Positions 1 to 30,451 of a DNA stretch of 64,000 nt are shown in pieces; position 1 is the stretch's first letter, and the number at the start of each line of letters is the position of its first letter. Location of the stretch: the sequence record MZ501075, one strand, 5' to 3'. Below the pieces are notes generated by a model. The model was not told where the DNA came from, did no database searches, and was given only the letters and a program-made list of their open reading frames with translations. The position numbers and the translations under genes are program-made. The DNA is from Escherichia phage IrisVonRoten.

Positions 1-483
1 ATGGCAAATGATGTATTAGTACCAGATCTTATGTCCCCTGAAGGGATGGATGTGATTGAAGCTTATTTACAGTGTGGTAGCGATGTGCCTTCTGCCGCAC
101 GTAGTCTTGGAATGTCCGAAATTGCTTTCCGAGATATTATGAATCGTAGTGAAGTTAAGAACTACTTAAATGATATTTTTATGGAAAGTGGATTCCGTAA
201 TAGGGATCGTTTGTTCGGTGTTCTAGATGAAGTTATTAAGCGTAAGCTGGAGGAACTAGAAGAAACCGGCATGGGTTCTGATCAAGATATTATGGATATT
301 CTCTGGAAAGCACATAAAATGAAAATGGAAGAAATGAAAATGATGGTGGAGTTAGAAAAAGCTAAAGCTGCTGTCCGTGCTCCTGCTAATCAGACTAATA
401 TCCAGAATAATATTATTGCTGGAGCTGGGGATCAAAACTACATGGACTTAATTACTTCCCTAGCTACTGGAGGTAAGAAGTAA
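1..483 (+). CDS. putative terminase small subunit (may be 5'-truncated at window edge)
   Basis: 160-aa ORF overlapping the large terminase start (TAATG); HTH-like segment [18 protein letters not shown]; position directly upstream of terL. Confidence 0.4.
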
Positions 484-1799
484 TGGAAGTATCAAGACCC
501 TATGTTAATACAGTAGATGTTATAGATTTCGGTATAGATAAACGTTTCTTTCGTCTACCTGTTTCTGGAATACTGGCGCAAGAAGGTATTACACCTAATG
601 GTCCTCAAATAGCAATTATCAATGCGCTAGAAGATCCTAGACATCGTTTTGTAACGGCATGTGTATCACGCCGTGTAGGTAAATCTTTCATCGCATACAC
701 ACTTGGGTTCCTAAAGTTGCTGGAACCTAACGTGAAGGTGCTAGTAGTTGCTCCTAATTACTCACTGGCCAACATCGGTTGGTCTCAGATTCGTGGCCTT
801 ATTAAAAAGTACGGCCTACAGACCGAACGTGAGAACGCTAAAGATAAAGAGATTGAGTTAGCTAATGGTTCTCTATTTAAACTAGCTTCCGCGGCTCAGG
901 CTGACTCCGCGGTTGGACGTTCATATGATTTTATCATCTTTGACGAGGCGGCAATTTCCGATGTGGGTGGTGATGCCTTTAGAGTTCAGCTGCGTCCTAC
1001 TCTAGATAAGCCTAATTCTAAGGCTTTATTTATCTCTACTCCTCGTGGTGGTAACTGGTTTAAAGAGTTTTATGCCTATGGATTTGATGATACGTTGCCT
1101 AACTGGGTATCTATTCATGGTACATATCGTGATAACCCACGTGCTGATCTGAATGACATTGAGGAAGCACGTCGTACAGTTAGTAAAAACTACTTCCGCC
1201 AGGAATACGAGGCTGACTTCTCTGTATTCGAAGGCCAGATCTTTGATACCTTTAATGCTATCGATCATGTTAAAGACCTCAAAGGTATGCGTCACTTCTT
1301 TAAAGATGATGAAGCATTCGAAACGTTGCTTGGTATTGACGTTGGTTATCGTGATCCTACAGCAGTTCTTACTATTAAATATCATTACGACACTGATACT
1401 TACTATGTATTAGAAGAGTACCAGCAGGCGGAAAAAACTACAGCTCAGCATGCTGCTTATATTCAGCATTGTATAGATCGTTATAAAGTTGATCGTATTT
1501 TTGTTGACTCCGCGGCAGCTCAGTTCCGTCAAGACTTAGCTTATGAGCATGAAATTGCATCAGCTCCAGCTAAAAAATCTGTCCTAGATGGCCTAGCATG
1601 TTTGCAAGCGTTATTTCAGCAGGGCAAGATTATTGTAGATGCCTCATGTTCCTCCTTAATTCATGCATTGCAGAATTATAAGTGGGACTTCCAGGAAGGT
1701 GAAGAAAAATTATCACGTGAAAAACCACGTCATGATGCTAACTCTCACCTTTGTGATGCGCTCCGCTATGGAATTTACTCTATTTCCCGTGGTAAATAA
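483..1799 (+). CDS. terL: terminase large subunit
   Basis: 438 aa; P-loop-like RRVGKSF and Walker-B-like DFIIFDEAA; same size as T5 TerL as recalled; followed by hairpin. Confidence 0.8.
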   Translation: MEVSRPYVNTVDVIDFGIDKRFFRLPVSGILAQEGITPNGPQIAIINALEDPRHRFVTACVSRRVGKSFIAYTLGFLKLLEPNVKVLVVAPNYSLANIGWSQIRGLIKKYGLQTERENAKDKEIELANGSLFKLASAAQADSAVGRSYDFIIFDEAAISDVGGDAFRVQLRPTLDKPNSKALFISTPRGGNWFKEFYAYGFDDTLPNWVSIHGTYRDNPRADLNDIEEARRTVSKNYFRQEYEADFSVFEGQIFDTFNAIDHVKDLKGMRHFFKDDEAFETLLGIDVGYRDPTAVLTIKYHYDTDTYYVLEEYQQAEKTTAQHAAYIQHCIDRYKVDRIFVDSAAAQFRQDLAYEHEIASAPAKKSVLDGLACLQALFQQGKIIVDASCSSLIHALQNYKWDFQEGEEKLSREKPRHDANSHLCDALRYGIYSISRGK

Positions 1800-1807
1800 A
1801 TAAGTAT

Positions 1808-1848
1808 AGGATGGGATACTACTCAGTTGGTATCCCATTCCTGTATTT
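1808..1848 (+). terminator. putative hairpin terminator after terL
   Basis: imperfect inverted repeat ATGGGATAC/GTATCCCAT with 10-nt loop followed by T-rich run. Confidence 0.35.
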
Positions 1849-1858
1849 TAAAATCCCC

Positions 1859-1887
1859 TTTACAAATTCGATACGATTATGTATACT
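1859..1887 (+). promoter_or_regulatory. sigma70-like promoter for endonuclease cassette
   Basis: TTTACA-N17-TATACT, followed by RBS TAGGAGA 7 nt before ATG at 1971. Confidence 0.45.
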
Positions 1888-1970
1888 ATATTCATTGATC
1901 GGGAGAACTTCTCCCATAATAGAACGTAAACAAGAAAAATTAATGCTCTACATGAGGTGTAGGAGATTCT

Positions 1971-2645
1971 ATGGGTCGACAAAAGCTAACAATAAAAGAT
2001 ATAAATATTAGATTAGCTGATCGTGGAATCCAAATTGTCGGTGAATATGTAAACCAACGTACAAAAACAGTATTTAAGTGCCAGAGAGCACACGTTTGGG
2101 AAGCAACACCACATTCTATACTCCATATGAGGAGAGGTTGTCCGCACTGCTCCAATAATACAATATCGTTAGATGAAGTTAGTAACAGAATATCTAATAT
2201 AGGGTATACTCTGTTAAGCAGCTATACTAATGCTAAAACAAAACTACATCTACGCTGCAATAATGGGCATGACTGTTTCATTACCTTAGATGGATTGACT
2301 CAAGGTAAAAGATGTCCTTATTGTTCTCTTAAGTGGGAGAATGGCGGATTCCTCTATATCATGTCCTCCTCTAGTGGTACTAAAGTAGGCATAAGCTTAT
2401 ACCCTGAGAAACGGCTGAATGAAGTTAAAAGAGAATCTGGATTTTCTGACCTATACTTGTTCACCATGTATCATCTGCCAGATAGAGAGACTGCTTTAGA
2501 TTTAGAAAAGGAAGTTCACAGAGAATATTATAATAAAAACTGTGGGTTTTCTAATTTTACGGGAAGCACAGAATTTTTTAATGTTGCTCCTGAGGACATA
2601 GTAATCTTTCTAAGTAGCTTTGGATTGGAGGAGTATGGCCACTAA
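1971..2645 (+). CDS. putative homing endonuclease, T5orf172/GIY-YIG-like catalytic domain with two N-terminal Cys-rich modules
   Basis: 224 aa; two repeated modules ending CPHCS / CPYCS; C-terminal GFLYIM..KVGIS..EKRLNE..TEFF resembles T5orf172-type GIY-YIG-like domain; own promoter and RBS. Confidence 0.5.
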   Translation: MGRQKLTIKDINIRLADRGIQIVGEYVNQRTKTVFKCQRAHVWEATPHSILHMRRGCPHCSNNTISLDEVSNRISNIGYTLLSSYTNAKTKLHLRCNNGHDCFITLDGLTQGKRCPYCSLKWENGGFLYIMSSSSGTKVGISLYPEKRLNEVKRESGFSDLYLFTMYHLPDRETALDLEKEVHREYYNKNCGFSNFTGSTEFFNVAPEDIVIFLSSFGLEEYGH

Positions 2646-3072
2646 TACTAAGTACAAACGTGATGCCATTTCCATAATGAGGGATGGTATAAAATCTAGG
2701 TATAGTAAGGATGGTTGCTGTGCTATATGTGGTAGTAGTGAAGACCTAGAACTTCATCATTATCATACTATATCTCAGCTAATAAAAAAATTTGCTAAAG
2801 AACTCCAGCTGGATTTCACTGATGAGAATATCGTCCTTTCAAATAGGGAAGCATTCTACAAGAAATATGAGCATGAGTTAGTTAGGGACGTGGTAACATT
2901 GTGCCAGCACCATCACCAACTATTACATAAGGTTTACACGAAAGAACCTCCCTTATTTTCTGCTAATAAGCAAAAAGCGTGGGTTCAAAAGCAGAAAGAC
3001 AAAATACAGAATCCTCAAGAAAAGACACAAGTCAAGACTGAAACAAAATCAGGATTCGCAAGGTTCTTATAA
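2635..3072 (+). CDS. HNH homing endonuclease
   Basis: CCAICGSSEDLELHHYH ... LCQHHHQLLH (HNH-type motifs); strong RBS GGAGGAG before ATG at 2635 (track ORF begins at upstream TTG 2620). Confidence 0.6.
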   Translation: MATNTKYKRDAISIMRDGIKSRYSKDGCCAICGSSEDLELHHYHTISQLIKKFAKELQLDFTDENIVLSNREAFYKKYEHELVRDVVTLCQHHHQLLHKVYTKEPPLFSANKQKAWVQKQKDKIQNPQEKTQVKTETKSGFARFL

Positions 3073-4289
3073 TGGGTTTTAAAAGCTGGATTACTGAAAA
3101 GCTAAATCCGGGTCAACGTATTATAAGAGACATGGAACCAGTTAGTCATCGCACTAACCGTAAGCCTTTTACCACTGGACAAGCCTATAGCAAGATTGAG
3201 ATTCTCAATCGAACTGCCAATATGGTTATAGATAGTGCGGCGGAGTGTTCTTATACTGTCGGAGATAAATATAATATTGTTACGTACGCTAATGGCGTCA
3301 AAACAAAGACTCTAGACACTCTCTTAAATGTACGACCTAATCCATTCATGGATATAAGCACATTCCGTAGACTTGTAGTCACTGACCTACTTTTTGAAGG
3401 TTGTGCATACATCTATTGGGATGGCACATCGCTTTACCATGTCCCGGCTGCTCTTATGCAGGTCGAGGCAGATGCCAATAAGTTTATCAAAAAATTTATA
3501 TTTAATAATCAGATAAACTATCGCGTAGATGAGATTATCTTTATAAAGGATAACAGTTACGTGTGTGGCACAAATTCTCAAATTTCTGGACAATCTCGTG
3601 TTGCTACTGTTATTGACTCTCTTGAAAAGCGTTCTAAAATGCTTAACTTTAAAGAGAAATTCCTAGATAACGGAACCGTGATTGGTCTTATTCTTGAGAC
3701 GGATGAAATCCTGAACAAGAAATTGCGTGAGCGTAAACAAGAAGAATTACAACTCGATTATAATCCTAGTACTGGTCAGTCTTCTGTCCTGATTCTAGAT
3801 GGTGGTATGAAAGCTAAACCGTACTCCCAAATATCCTCTTTTAAAGATCTAGACTTTAAGGAAGACATCGAAGGATTTAATAAATCTATTTGTCTAGCCT
3901 TTGGAGTTCCGCAAGTACTGCTTGATGGTGGTAATAATGCGAATATTCGACCAAACATCGAATTGTTCTATTATATGACTATCATTCCTATGCTGAACAA
4001 ACTGACTAGTTCTCTTACTTTCTTTTTTGGTTATAAGATTACTCCTAATACTAAGGAAGTAGCTGCATTAACACCAGATAAAGAAGCTGAGGCTAAACAT
4101 TTAACCTCATTGGTTAATAATGGTATTATGACTGGTAACGAAGCTCGTTTAGAGCTGAACCTTGAACCTTTAGATGATGAGCAGATGGATAGGATTCGTA
4201 TTCCTGCTAACGTTGCTGGTTCTGCAACAGGTGTATCTGGTCAAGAAGGTGGTAGACCTCAAGGTTCCACCGAGGGAGATAAAGAATGA
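3072..4289 (+). CDS. portal protein
   Basis: 405 aa; position between terminase and head genes; size matches T5 portal as recalled; start overlaps upstream stop (TAATG). Confidence 0.8.
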   Translation: MGFKSWITEKLNPGQRIIRDMEPVSHRTNRKPFTTGQAYSKIEILNRTANMVIDSAAECSYTVGDKYNIVTYANGVKTKTLDTLLNVRPNPFMDISTFRRLVVTDLLFEGCAYIYWDGTSLYHVPAALMQVEADANKFIKKFIFNNQINYRVDEIIFIKDNSYVCGTNSQISGQSRVATVIDSLEKRSKMLNFKEKFLDNGTVIGLILETDEILNKKLRERKQEELQLDYNPSTGQSSVLILDGGMKAKPYSQISSFKDLDFKEDIEGFNKSICLAFGVPQVLLDGGNNANIRPNIELFYYMTIIPMLNKLTSSLTFFFGYKITPNTKEVAALTPDKEAEAKHLTSLVNNGIMTGNEARLELNLEPLDDEQMDRIRIPANVAGSATGVSGQEGGRPQGSTEGDKE

Positions 4290-11793: not shown

Positions 11794-11829
11794 AAGTTTC
11801 CTCCAATGGGGCGTTCCACGATGAGGCTT

Positions 11830-11861
11830 GGCTCTGGGTGATATGCCCAGAGCCTTTTTTA
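11830..11861 (+). terminator. rho-independent terminator
   Basis: GGCTCTGGG-7nt-CCCAGAGCC followed by TTTTTT. Confidence 0.65.
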
Positions 11862-11887
11862 TTTATAAACATATAGGTTGGTATAGT

Positions 11888-12640
11888 ATGGGAAAGAAGA
11901 TTACTAAACAGGATAGAGAGTCTCAGATAAGCAACATTTGCAATGATAAAAATTTATCCTTTGTTGGCTGGATAGGTGAGTACACTAATATTAAAAGCAC
12001 CCTTACACTTAAGTGTAATAAATGTTATTACACCTGGTCTCCTAGGTTGGATAACTTTTTACGGATTACTGCCCAAAAATGCCCTGCATGCGCAGGCAAA
12101 GCTAGATGGACGAAGGAAGAAAGAGAAGAACAAATAAAAAGTAAGTGTGCCGAGAAAGGATATAACTTTCTATCTTGGTCTTCCACCTATATTAATAAAG
12201 ATTCTAAGATTATACTTAAATGTTTAAAAGATGGTTGTATCTGGGATGTGTCTATACACCATTTTATTAATCACGATACAGGGTGTCCTGATTGTGCTTC
12301 AGGAGGATTTAATCCTAATATACCAGCTACTTTTTATATACAGAAATTAACGTATCAAGGGACTCACTTTCTAAAATTTGGGATCACTGGTAAGGATGTA
12401 CTAGAGAGAATGAGGCAGCAAAGCAATAAATCACTATGCGAGCACTCGGTAATTTTTTCTCATACTTTTTCTTATGGTTCTATGGCTAGGGGGCTAGAAA
12501 AAGTAGTAAAGGACTCAGTAAACACAGGAGTATTAGATAAACATATCCTTCCAGATGGGTACACCGAAACTTGTCACTACTCTGAGCTAGAAACTATACT
12601 ATCTTTAACTAATAGTTTTATACAGGAAAACATTAGATGA
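11888..12640 (+). CDS. putative homing endonuclease, T5orf172/GIY-YIG-like (paralog of 1971-2645)
   Basis: two N-terminal Cys-rich modules (KCPACAG, GCPDCAS) aligning with those of ORF 1971-2645; C-terminal FYIQKL..FLKFGITGKDVLERMRQ; inserted between chaperone genes and tape measure; stop overlaps tape measure start. Confidence 0.5.
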   Translation: MGKKITKQDRESQISNICNDKNLSFVGWIGEYTNIKSTLTLKCNKCYYTWSPRLDNFLRITAQKCPACAGKARWTKEEREEQIKSKCAEKGYNFLSWSSTYINKDSKIILKCLKDGCIWDVSIHHFINHDTGCPDCASGGFNPNIPATFYIQKLTYQGTHFLKFGITGKDVLERMRQQSNKSLCEHSVIFSHTFSYGSMARGLEKVVKDSVNTGVLDKHILPDGYTETCHYSELETILSLTNSFIQENIR

Positions 12641-28612: not shown

Positions 28613-30451
28613 TTATTCTAAGTAGGAAAATCCTTCTGCATCTTTTTTGACAGTAATCTTATGGGCTAATGGATGCGTATGCCCATGTGAAACAATGATA
28701 GAGTTAAGACTATCTTCCTTGTTTAACAATTCAACTAGAGTATCAAGTCCTTTCGTATCGATAAAGCTAATTACTTCATCAAGGAATAGAAGATTAATAT
28801 TAACTTTACTAATAGATGTTAACAGCATACGAATCGCTAACAATGTTGCTAGATTGATTCGACTTTGCTGACCAGTAGAGCAGTTCTCCATACTGGTACG
28901 ATTCCCATCATTGAAGATTACTACTTGTAATTTTGTTTCATCAAGTTCAAATCCAAGTGCGAATTTACCGCCAGTCATAATAGAAAGATATTTATTAATT
29001 AGCTCTTCAAATACTTTCACACTATGCTCTAGTTTATACCCCACCAGATTTTTCAATGCAGCAATTAGAATATCGAGATCAGCAACAGCTTCTGATACTT
29101 CATCCAGTTTGGAAGTAATTTCAGTCATTTCTGCTTCTGCTTTCTCAATCTGTTCTAGCTTTGCTTTATATTTTGCATTGGCTAATTCGACATTTGCATT
29201 ATGCTCTTTGGCAATTGCAACCTTAGAACGGCCATCAGCGATTTCCTGTTCTAATTGTCGGATTTGCACCTGTAGGATTTGCACATTGAGTTCTTCAAAA
29301 GAAGCATCACCCATTGAATTTTTGAACTCGTCTCTAGCTACCACCGCTTTATCCAAAGCATCCTTTGCTCTAGTATACACAACGTACTCAAGTTGTTCTT
29401 TCTTCAACTGTTCTAGCTTAGCTTCAAGAGATTGCTTCTCTTTGAACAGAGGATCATATTCTATTCTAGCCATATCCATTGCTTTTTGAGCAGCAGTTGT
29501 ATCCAGGTGAGTACCACAAGTAGGGCATTCAGTGTTTGAAGCCTCTTGCTTGAACTTCTGATAACGTTTCTTGACTTCACCTGCACGTGAGGTCACAATC
29601 GTTAGGTCACGCGTAACACTTGAGATCTCTTCATTTTGGTCGGTGGGCGCGGGAAGATTTTTATATGATTCGAAAGATTGTTCGGCAACTTGTACAGCTT
29701 TGTCCAAATTACGCAACTTAGTAATATTAGCCTCTTGAGACTTGGCTAATGCCGCCTTAATTTTCGATTCAGTAAGTTCTTGTGCTAATGGTTCTTCATC
29801 AAACTCCGGTACTTCTACAGGTTCCTGCAAAGTTCCTAGATTATTTCTTCCATTAAGGATTTTTGTAATTACAGCCATTTGGCCCTGCAAATTATTTAAG
29901 GTATTTGCTATTTCTTTACGGTCAGCCTTAATAGTTTCCGACATTTCTTTGTATTGTTCTTGATTGAACAAATTAACAAGAAAAGCCTTACGTGTTGCAT
30001 CCGTTGCTTTTAGAAAATCTAGGTTGGAACCCACTGATTGATAAATCAGTTTGGTGAATGTTTGAAAGTCACCACCCATAATCTCTTCAATCATCTTATA
30101 TGTTTGGGTTGCTGTATGCCCACTAATATCTTCGCCATTCTTAATGAGTGTAACTTTAGCAGTTGATTTAACTACTTTATGCAGCTCATACTCATCATCA
30201 TCTTTCGAGAAATAAGCGTGCATATCATACTCTTTCTTAGGGGCATTCCAAGAGAACAATGCATCCTTTTTAATACCGCGAGAATTTTTATTATAGAATA
30301 GCTCTTCTATAACCGTGGCGATAGTGGATTTCCCTAGTCCATTGCCACCAATTAGTTGAGTAACTGGATTCTTATCGAAATGAATTACGATGTCCTTACC
30401 GTAAGACATAACGTTACTAAATTTTAGTGTCTTAATTGTAATCTTTGACAT
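28613..30451 (-). CDS. SbcC/Rad50-like recombination ATPase (T5 D13-like)
   Basis: Walker A GGNGLGKST near N-terminus, long coiled-coil middle, C-terminal signature/Walker B region (LLFLDEVISFID); likely ATG at 30451 (track ORF extends to 30553). Confidence 0.75.
   Translation of the reverse strand: MSKITIKTLKFSNVMSYGKDIVIHFDKNPVTQLIGGNGLGKSTIATVIEELFYNKNSRGIKKDALFSWNAPKKEYDMHAYFSKDDDEYELHKVVKSTAKVTLIKNGEDISGHTATQTYKMIEEIMGGDFQTFTKLIYQSVGSNLDFLKATDATRKAFLVNLFNQEQYKEMSETIKADRKEIANTLNNLQGQMAVITKILNGRNNLGTLQEPVEVPEFDEEPLAQELTESKIKAALAKSQEANITKLRNLDKAVQVAEQSFESYKNLPAPTDQNEEISSVTRDLTIVTSRAGEVKKRYQKFKQEASNTECPTCGTHLDTTAAQKAMDMARIEYDPLFKEKQSLEAKLEQLKKEQLEYVVYTRAKDALDKAVVARDEFKNSMGDASFEELNVQILQVQIRQLEQEIADGRSKVAIAKEHNANVELANAKYKAKLEQIEKAEAEMTEITSKLDEVSEAVADLDILIAALKNLVGYKLEHSVKVFEELINKYLSIMTGGKFALGFELDETKLQVVIFNDGNRTSMENCSTGQQSRINLATLLAIRMLLTSISKVNINLLFLDEVISFIDTKGLDTLVELLNKEDSLNSIIVSHGHTHPLAHKITVKKDAEGFSYLE

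Follow-up and report, generated by a model that had tools for sequence, protein, structure and literature searches.

The region between the terminase and portal genes of Escherichia phage IrisVonRoten (record MZ501075) encodes two overlapping nuclease-type proteins, which raises the question of whether mobile selfish genes have settled there one after the other, as a preliminary description made from the sequence had considered possible, or whether the two genes differ in nature. The window, that is the whole stretch of 64,000 nucleotides analysed here, was compared with related phages over its first 5 kb, which matched 465 phage records (370 of them over at least 80% of the query) and had 96–97% identity with phage T5 and the phages nearest to it, by which the window is identified as that of a T5-like phage. 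The terminase-portal junction was found to hold two nuclease genes of different nature. It is in our view highly probable that one of them, sciA, is a resident core gene for a nickase and that the other, here called ORF-A, is a free-standing cassette of the homing-endonuclease type.

Layout of the terminase-portal junction

The gene order at the left end of the window is TerS, TerL, ORF-A, ORF-B, portal, decoration protein, prohead protease and major head protein. The features needed for the argument are the following:

1–483: TerS
483–1799, plus strand: terminase large subunit TerL, T5.155 orthologue, left neighbour of the site (Pfam Terminase_6N/6C)
1809–1840, plus strand: terminator-like hairpin 3′ of terL, a 13-pair stem followed by a T-run
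1859–1887, plus strand: sigma-70-like promoter TTTACA-17-TATACT (10/12 matches), read as resident and as that of the sciA-portal genes
1896–2620, plus strand: inserted cassette of about 721 bp, made up of a leader containing a small hairpin, an RBS and almost all of the T5orf172 ORF
1971–2645, plus strand: ORF-A, T5.154 orthologue, 224 aa, T5orf172/GIY-YIG-fold, homing-endonuclease-type
2627–2633, plus strand: RBS of sciA, GGAGGAG, read from the sequence within the final codons of ORF-A
2635–3072, plus strand: sciA (ORF-B; T5.153/T5p149/ORF142), 145 aa, HNH/His-Me type
3072–4289, plus strand: portal protein, T5.152 orthologue, right neighbour (Pfam Phage_portal, E 1e-50)

The two ORFs of the preliminary description were recovered at 1971–2645 and 2635–3072, and its statement that the start of the HNH gene overlaps the stop of the first gene was confirmed, the overlap comprising 11 nt (ORF-A stop TAA at 2643–2645, annotated ORF-B start ATG at 2635). 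The first gene also has its own RBS, as described (AGGAG at 1961–1965, 5 nt 5′ of the ATG), and the portal start overlaps the sciA stop (TAATG). A terL annotation is present in the T5, ECOP18 and DT571/2 records. In T5 records, ORF-A corresponds to T5.154 (‘endonuclease’; ‘YomD’) and ORF-B to T5.153 (ORF142), and the TerS gene is labelled ‘sciB’. Both nuclease genes have already been described or annotated, SciA has in addition been solved structurally, and the locus is an ordinary one for a T5-like phage.

Identity, conservation and presumed substrate of SciA

A sequence search of the PDB showed ORF-B to be identical over 145 residues to entries 9QGV and 9QGX, save for the engineered H42Q/H42A. 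Both entries (released 2026-03-25) are named ‘Nicking endonuclease’, and their titles read ‘SciA ... endonuclease from Escherichia phage T5 in complex with 10 bp DNA (GCGC sequence)’. The window gene shares 98.6% nucleotide identity with the T5 gene, and T5 SciA (T5.153/T5p149/ORF142) shows no difference of substance from ORF-B. In GenBank, the gene is annotated as ‘sciA: nicking site-specific endonuclease’ in DT571/2 and Gostya9, as ‘SciA ... required for forming nicks on the minus DNA strand’ in Sepoy, and as ‘nicking endonuclease’ in HildyBeyeler. ORF-B is, judged by its sequence, SciA, the site-specific nicking endonuclease of T5. A literature search found no primary paper linking sciA to the T5.153 ORF or standing behind 9QGV and 9QGX, and the sciA assignment therefore rests on the PDB titles and GenBank annotations; that SciA makes the T5 nicks is a putative role, based on these titles, on the record annotations and on a secondary account (PMC3517423).

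The zinc site (C29/C32/C90/H93), the catalytic H41-H42, and H94 and H98 of SciA were all invariant in an alignment of 27 sequences reaching down to 38% identity. The resulting invariant pattern CxxC...HH...CxxHH...H, a match to PHROG 8048 ‘HNH endonuclease’ (E 2.5e-7) and the identity to the solved SciA are the basis on which the second gene is here, as in the preliminary description, assigned to the HNH type. The match to HNH_2 in the local Pfam library was below the cut-off (E = 1), and the fold matches above noise included no solved HNH protein except SciA. In a collection of 5.8 billion proteins, all 74 clusters of SciA homologues belonged to one family, PF26848, with lengths of 105–181 residues and the UniRef name ‘Nicking endonuclease’.

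Sporadic presence would be expected if the HNH gene were a homing endonuclease, as initially suggested. Instead, SciA was found by tblastn in 898 phage records (900 places, 897 of them full-length, 42–100% identity), compared with 906 phage records for TerL, in T5-like genomes of the family Demerecviridae whose hosts include Escherichia, Salmonella, Klebsiella, Proteus, Providencia, Aeromonas and Vibrio; the identity falls to 42–50% in Vibrio and metagenomic relatives. The order TerS-TerL-sciA-portal was encountered in Thalassavirus ABurr, Jesfedecavirus JSF12, Sugarlandvirus and the enterobacterial genera, and in each of the 79 IMG/VR loci extending as far as TerL this gene lies directly upstream of sciA, with the portal gene directly downstream. 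No TerL-portal junction without sciA was seen among 80 IMG/VR loci, all of which had been retrieved with sciA. Being single-copy, universal and syntenic across the virus family, sciA is therefore a core gene, fixed in T5-like phages, and is neither a homing endonuclease nor a second invader. In the propagated isolate Klebsiella phage pKMKP103, the sciA copy appears disrupted. Salmonella phage SP_Thor, which matched the junction over the left 96 bp only, was treated as a faulty or rearranged record and not as a sciA-free allele; sciA, the portal gene and the capsid gene are absent at its locus, and its product names are implausible.

These data bear directly on the proposal that both genes are homing endonucleases that successively invaded one conserved target. 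Both products are of nuclease type and their genes overlap head to tail, the junction is indeed a hot spot for insertions, and T5 carries many other HNH homing endonucleases (PMC10644984; PMC4319617). The proposal is nevertheless extremely improbable given a gene that 898 of about 906 T5-like genomes carry as one full-length copy, always placed between TerL and portal, whose product is identical in sequence to the SciA of the crystal structures, and for which neither an allele with the whole gene gone, among the loci inspected, nor a paralogue within the window was found. Sequential invasion of one target is contradicted by this universality, and ‘two stacked homing endonucleases’ is half right, since the mobility of a cassette is supported and an invasion in sequence is not.

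Single-strand interruptions in T5 DNA have been known since the 1960s. According to a secondary account (PMC3517423), T5 DNA has five major and many minor nicks, all in one strand, with the consensus 5′-R/GCGCRGG; mapping placed sciA and sciB in the late region, and nick-less mutants are viable (citing Rogers 1979). The T5 record AY587007 lists a ‘major single-stranded nick 4, 64.7%’ at 78651–78657 (CCCGCGC), the reverse complement of which is conserved in the window together with its flanks:

29646–29653, plus strand: conserved T5 ‘major single-stranded nick 4’ site GGCGCGGG, fitting R/GCGCRGG, presumed substrate of the sciA product

As sciA and the nick-4 site are both conserved, SciA and one or more of the sites on which it acts would be present together in the window. 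Past this conserved site the nick consensus gave no signal in the window: R/GCGCRGG showed no enrichment or strand bias, with two exact sites, both on the plus strand, compared with 1.8 expected, and with one mismatch allowed there were 50 sites compared with 50.4 expected.

The remark in the preliminary description that an HNH gene beside a terminase may serve packaging finds some footing in the position of sciA, which lies inside the TerS-TerL-portal module in every relative, next to a TerS gene carrying the ‘sciB’ label in T5 records, and whose C-terminal third is conserved with the portal start, a hint of a conserved interaction; terminase-helping HNH proteins are moreover documented in cos phages (PMC3592412; PMC10448857). 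However, the solved structures are of SciA on GCGC DNA, the core of the nick site, and mutants deficient in the interruptions are viable according to PMC3517423 (citing Rogers 1979), so that SciA would not be essential for packaging; pKMKP103 was also propagated though its sciA appears disrupted. The structures and the viable mutants point elsewhere, and we consider it very unlikely that ORF-B serves mainly in packaging, as an accessory of the HK97 gp74 type that helps the terminase to cut ends and nicks only incidentally, although a subsidiary part in packaging is conceivable. The comparison with such proteins is instructive in both directions. HK97 gp74-type HNH proteins, the HNH nickase of phage Gamma and SciA are all small, have a CxxC zinc site and are encoded beside terminase genes (PMC3592412, PMC4027164), and N.phiGamma is a strand- and site-specific nickase, as SciA would be. 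Past the minimal HNH motif, however, SciA has no detectable sequence or fold similarity to them, and its gene lies between terL and portal and not 5′ of terS or cos. The T5 genome ends in long terminal repeats and not in cos ends (PMC10644984), and the nicks ascribed to SciA are internal and persist in virion DNA.

The ORF-A cassette, its boundaries and its alleles

ORF-A exceeded the Pfam gathering scores for T5orf172, MUG113, CapR and DUF4379, with residues 126–211 scoring 35.5 bits for T5orf172 (cut-off 20) and 36.3 bits for MUG113 (cut-off 22.3). The protein comprises two zinc-finger DNA-binding repeats (C37...C57xxC60 and C96...C115xxC118; CapR/DUF4379) and a C-terminal T5orf172 nuclease domain with a GIY-YIG alpha/beta fold and conserved Y129, R148 and E201. 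Its first description as T5orf172/GIY-YIG-like is upheld by the profile scores and these residues. A sequence search for solved relatives of ORF-A gave just spurious ankyrin matches. ORF-A shares 99.1% aa identity with T5.154 (‘hypothetical protein YomD’ in AY587007), which occupies the same site with the same overlap with sciA. In the RefSeq T5 record, the T5.154 product is longer (277 aa) and starts further upstream, compared with 224 aa for ORF-A of the window. The longer annotation stems from a 1-nt difference (window CATGAGGT, T5 CATG-GGT); in the window the upstream ORF (1811–2011) is out of frame, and the 224-aa form therefore applies.

Orthologues of ORF-A were found in about 80 of about 900 T5-like genomes: copies with at least 90% aa identity occurred in 77 records only, and copies with 80–90% in three more. 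Paralogues with less than 60% identity lay elsewhere in the genomes, with 553 places spread over 403 records. A 1272-bp query spanning the junction matched 535 records, 72 of which covered at least 80% of it; among the matches listed, which were evenly sampled, about two thirds matched just the 96-bp left flank and sciA, within a span of 551 bp.

Base-level alignment resolved filled, decayed, scarred and empty alleles with identical flanks. The filled allele, with about 721 extra bases, is represented by the window and T5. In the empty allele of Sepoy (Epseptimavirus), the boundary runs straight into the sciA RBS, with a gap of 115 bp, and the junction of the Klebsiella T5-like phage rec22 is likewise empty. 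Decayed alleles were found in DT571/2 and Gostya9, where the start codon has changed from ATG to ACG, about 320 bp are deleted, the nuclease domain is gone and the middle is strongly diverged, and in SA001, where the ORF-A copy is truncated. HildyBeyeler carries a scar, the first ~55 nt of the cassette leader. The Klebsiella phages Spivey and pKMKP103 have an ORF-A homologue of 53% identity at the same boundary, overlapping sciA.

The left end of the insertion, from the alignment of filled with empty alleles, falls after position 1895 of the window, where the sequence up to the insertion point reads ATATTCAT, and this boundary is identical in the Klebsiella phages. All aligned alleles have in common the TerL stop, the terminator, the promoter and the sequence leading up to TATACTATATTCAT. 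The filled allele exceeds the empty one by 721 bp (1272 vs 551 bp; TerL-sciA gap 835 vs 115 bp), with a right end that can be placed near the sciA RBS only to within a few bases. Because the insertion begins after 1895, the terminator and promoter are resident sequence. Both are kept at 97–100% identity in the cassette-free phages Sepoy and HildyBeyeler; the hairpin is conserved in these two and in DT571/2, and an analogous one occurs in Klebsiella relatives. The promoter lies directly 5′ of the HNH gene in Sepoy and HildyBeyeler, and upstream of the insertion boundary in the empty alleles of Sepoy, HildyBeyeler and rec22. The promoter that had been ascribed to the first gene as its own is thus located outside the insertion and also present in empty alleles; the alignment identifies 1859–1887 as the resident promoter of the sciA-portal genes, behind which the cassette sits and which it appears to borrow. 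Inserted between this promoter and the sciA RBS, the cassette would therefore use the resident promoter, and as ORF-A runs into the sciA RBS and start codon, sciA expression would be kept. Equivalent GAGGAG/GGAGGA sites are found 5′ of sciA in empty alleles. A search for a regulatory hairpin in the cassette leader (1890–1990) gave a fold no better than those of shuffled sequences (z −0.91).

The content of the TerL-sciA gap was also scored in a survey of the 79 metagenomic or isolate IMG/VR loci that reach TerL:

Empty gap (47–192 bp): 62 of 79 loci
ORF-A: 8 of 79
Remnant of ORF-A: 1 of 79
Klebsiella-type homologue: 1 of 79
Unrelated DUF723+T5orf172 gene (L093): 1 of 79
Gene for a 519-aa protein with zinc finger and REase_MTES_1575/Mom-like matches, both weak (L052, L074): 2 of 79
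Non-nuclease inserts: 4 of 79

At least three nuclease lineages use the site, and within Demerecviridae different nucleases have repeatedly settled in the TerL-sciA gap, in agreement with the published clustering of such genes: T5orf172 genes with CapR-type fingers have been treated as homing endonucleases that cluster beside terminase genes, 35% of them being in neighbourhoods with a terminase gene (PMC10448857). The alleles support ORF-A as a variably present mobile cassette, probably of the homing-endonuclease type. Aligned across relatives, the terminase-portal junctions yielded cassette-free alleles for ORF-A and none for sciA, which for sciA is the outcome that the preliminary description had itself named as counting against its reading, and the notion of mobile selfish cassettes holds for ORF-A, with its empty, decayed and scarred alleles and other nucleases at the site, and not for sciA as a core gene.

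Intact copies of ORF-A are under strong purifying selection (dN/dS 0.08–0.09 at dS ~0.6). This value, together with the 77 records in which the gene is intact, would also be consistent with a domesticated nuclease or DNA-binding protein that is not, or no longer, active in homing and that either excludes T5-like competitors or satellites or modulates late transcription; in the ICP1/PLE system, CapR-type fingers serve as repressors and T5orf172 nucleases act against satellites (PMC10448857, PMC8263062, PMC8096241). Purifying selection is, however, also expected of an element that needs to cut in order to spread, most relatives thrive without ORF-A, and one precise site that, in two separate groups of genera, is variously filled, decayed, scarred or empty shows the classical life cycle of a homing endonuclease. 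Domestication therefore seems unlikely to us.

Proposed mechanism and relation to known systems

In the arrangement that we favour, with sciA as the resident nickase gene and ORF-A as the cassette, sciA would be co-transcribed with portal from the promoter at 1859–1887, and its product would introduce the classical single-strand interruptions into one T5 strand at GCGC-containing sites. The cassette of about 721 bp would have inserted between this resident late promoter and the sciA RBS, with ORF-A transcribed from the resident promoter, translated from its own RBS and reading through the sciA RBS into the sciA start, so placed that sciA stays translatable. In the ORF-A protein, the tandem CapR/treble-clef zinc fingers would recognise DNA and the T5orf172 domain would catalyse cleavage. 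During mixed infection, the protein may cut a cassette-free allele near the junction, and repair from the cassette-bearing genome would copy the ORF-A gene in; afterwards, copies may be kept by selection, or decay and be lost. We infer this homing mechanism by analogy with the T4 seg/mob genes (PMC2790892) and the T5orf172 genes of ICP1 (PMC10448857).

The T5orf172 homing endonucleases of vibriophage ICP1 (Barth, Dunham & Seed 2023, PMC10448857) resemble ORF-A in having finger repeats of the CapR/DUF4379/DUF723 type followed by T5orf172, and the genes of both are free-standing, lie beside the large terminase gene and are variably distributed. They differ in belonging to another phage family and in not being closely related in sequence, and in that experimental evidence supports nuclease function for related proteins in the ICP1 case, whereas that of ORF-A is predicted. 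Like ORF-A, the free-standing T4 seg/mob homing endonucleases (mobE, PMC2790892) are intergenic between essential genes, use the transcription signals of the host phage and are polymorphic for presence among relatives; cutting of the element-free allele nearby, followed by recombinational repair, would presumably be common to both. The nuclease branch differs, being T5orf172 for ORF-A and canonical GIY-YIG or HNH for T4 seg/mob.

Co-conversion or hitch-hiking of the flanks with the cassette was considered and rejected as evidence. The sciA genes of phages bearing the cassette or a remnant are 98–99% identical to each other and 78–83% identical to those of cassette-free phages, but two cassette-free phages compared with each other share 76% identity in sciA, 86% in TerL and 94% in portal. 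As cassette-free pairs diverge too, the similarity among cassette-bearing phages may simply mirror their relatedness. In one IMG/VR locus (L025), the cassette is accompanied by an 86% sciA allele, and sliding-window identity revealed general mosaicism and no clean tract. The 5′ two-thirds of sciA evolve fast, even between two cassette-free phages, and the 3′ third is ~100% conserved at the nucleotide level along with the portal start. A functional coupling of the homing nuclease with SciA is conceivable, in which the target would lie in the fast-evolving 5′ part of sciA, with homing and escape from it diversifying the nickase, or in which the cassette protein would modulate the shared late promoter; we regard either form as very improbable. 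If true, repeated homing and escape would cause the nickase, and perhaps its specificity for nick sites, to diversify among T5-like phages.

Beyond correct annotation, the importance of the locus is small. For ORF-A, it neatly illustrates, as a textbook example would, how a single site can be filled, decaying, scarred or empty in different phages, and for an HNH gene beside a terminase, homing endonuclease should not be the default annotation.

Extent of ORF-A and a second endonuclease-like reading frame

In the RefSeq T5 genome (NC_005859, L001 2811-3644), the annotation of the ORF-A orthologue T5.154 gives a product of 277 aa "with a transmembrane domain", and its start lies upstream of the promoter. 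This annotation stems from a 1-nt difference at window position 1955, where the window reads CATGAGGT and T5 reads CATG-GGT. The upstream ORF of the window (1811-2011) is in a different frame from ORF-A, which supports the 224-aa form of ORF-A here.

Besides ORF-A, a second homing-endonuclease-like ORF was found in the window:

11828-12640, + strand: homing-endonuclease-like ORF, 270 aa, between the tail assembly chaperone and tape-measure genes

Its product contains two CapR repeats (E 3e-24), a DUF4379 match and a C-terminal part that can be aligned to the T5orf172 domain of ORF-A, with the domain itself falling below Pfam detection in this ORF.

Other gap contents and questionable records

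In some distant T5-like phages represented by IMG/VR contigs, the gap between TerL and sciA holds non-nuclease cargo in place of a nuclease. One such case encodes a 687-aa protein without a Pfam match, and another comprises a three-gene block, among whose products is a repeat-rich protein of 335-358 aa.

Gap contents in T5-like IMG/VR contigs
L046/L047, 1316-3379: TerL-sciA gap contents
L078/L079, ~1375-3500: TerL-sciA gap contents

Some phage records are questionable (PQ773600.1, MG065692.1, MG065642.1 and NC_103484.1). T5-type sequence is present inside records labelled as Corynebacterium phage and Campylobacter phage (TerL with 96% aa identity, sciA-region DNA with ~82% identity), and these are probably mislabelled or contaminated. 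At the TerL-portal locus, the Salmonella phage SP_Thor record has no sciA, portal or capsid gene, and its product names are implausible.

Variation within sciA

When the span 2635-3400 was compared to the cassette-free relatives HildyBeyeler (L005) and Sepoy (L004), a sharp conservation step was seen within sciA: the 5' two-thirds of the gene (2635-2900) share just 75–82% identity, and from ~2995 into the first 300 bp of the portal gene the identity is 98–100%. The C-terminal tail of SciA (KEPPLFSANKQKAWV...GFARFL), which is highly conserved, may take part in an interaction or hold an overlapping signal. In Klebsiella phage pKMKP103 (OR426634.1, L010 3001-3409), sciA appears to be disrupted, with a frame break straight after CAICGSAEN, no LELHHYH catalytic segment, and an annotated CDS corresponding to a 119-aa C-terminal fragment; either the phage is nick-less by nature or the break comes from a sequencing error.

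GCGC sites and the sciB label of TerS

The SciA recognition sequence has GCGC as its core, and this tetranucleotide occurs 42 times in the window (1-64000), compared to 87.5 ± 7.4 expected from dinucleotide-preserving shuffles, a roughly two-fold depletion with none of 100 shuffles reaching so low a count. A possible reason is that the phage avoids self-nicking or host restriction. The counterpart of the small terminase gene TerS (window 1-483) is named "sciB" in two T5 GenBank records (AY587007 and AY692264), and the DT571/2 record cites TerS as "probable sciB protein". If this label is correct, nick frequency would be modulated by a packaging protein.
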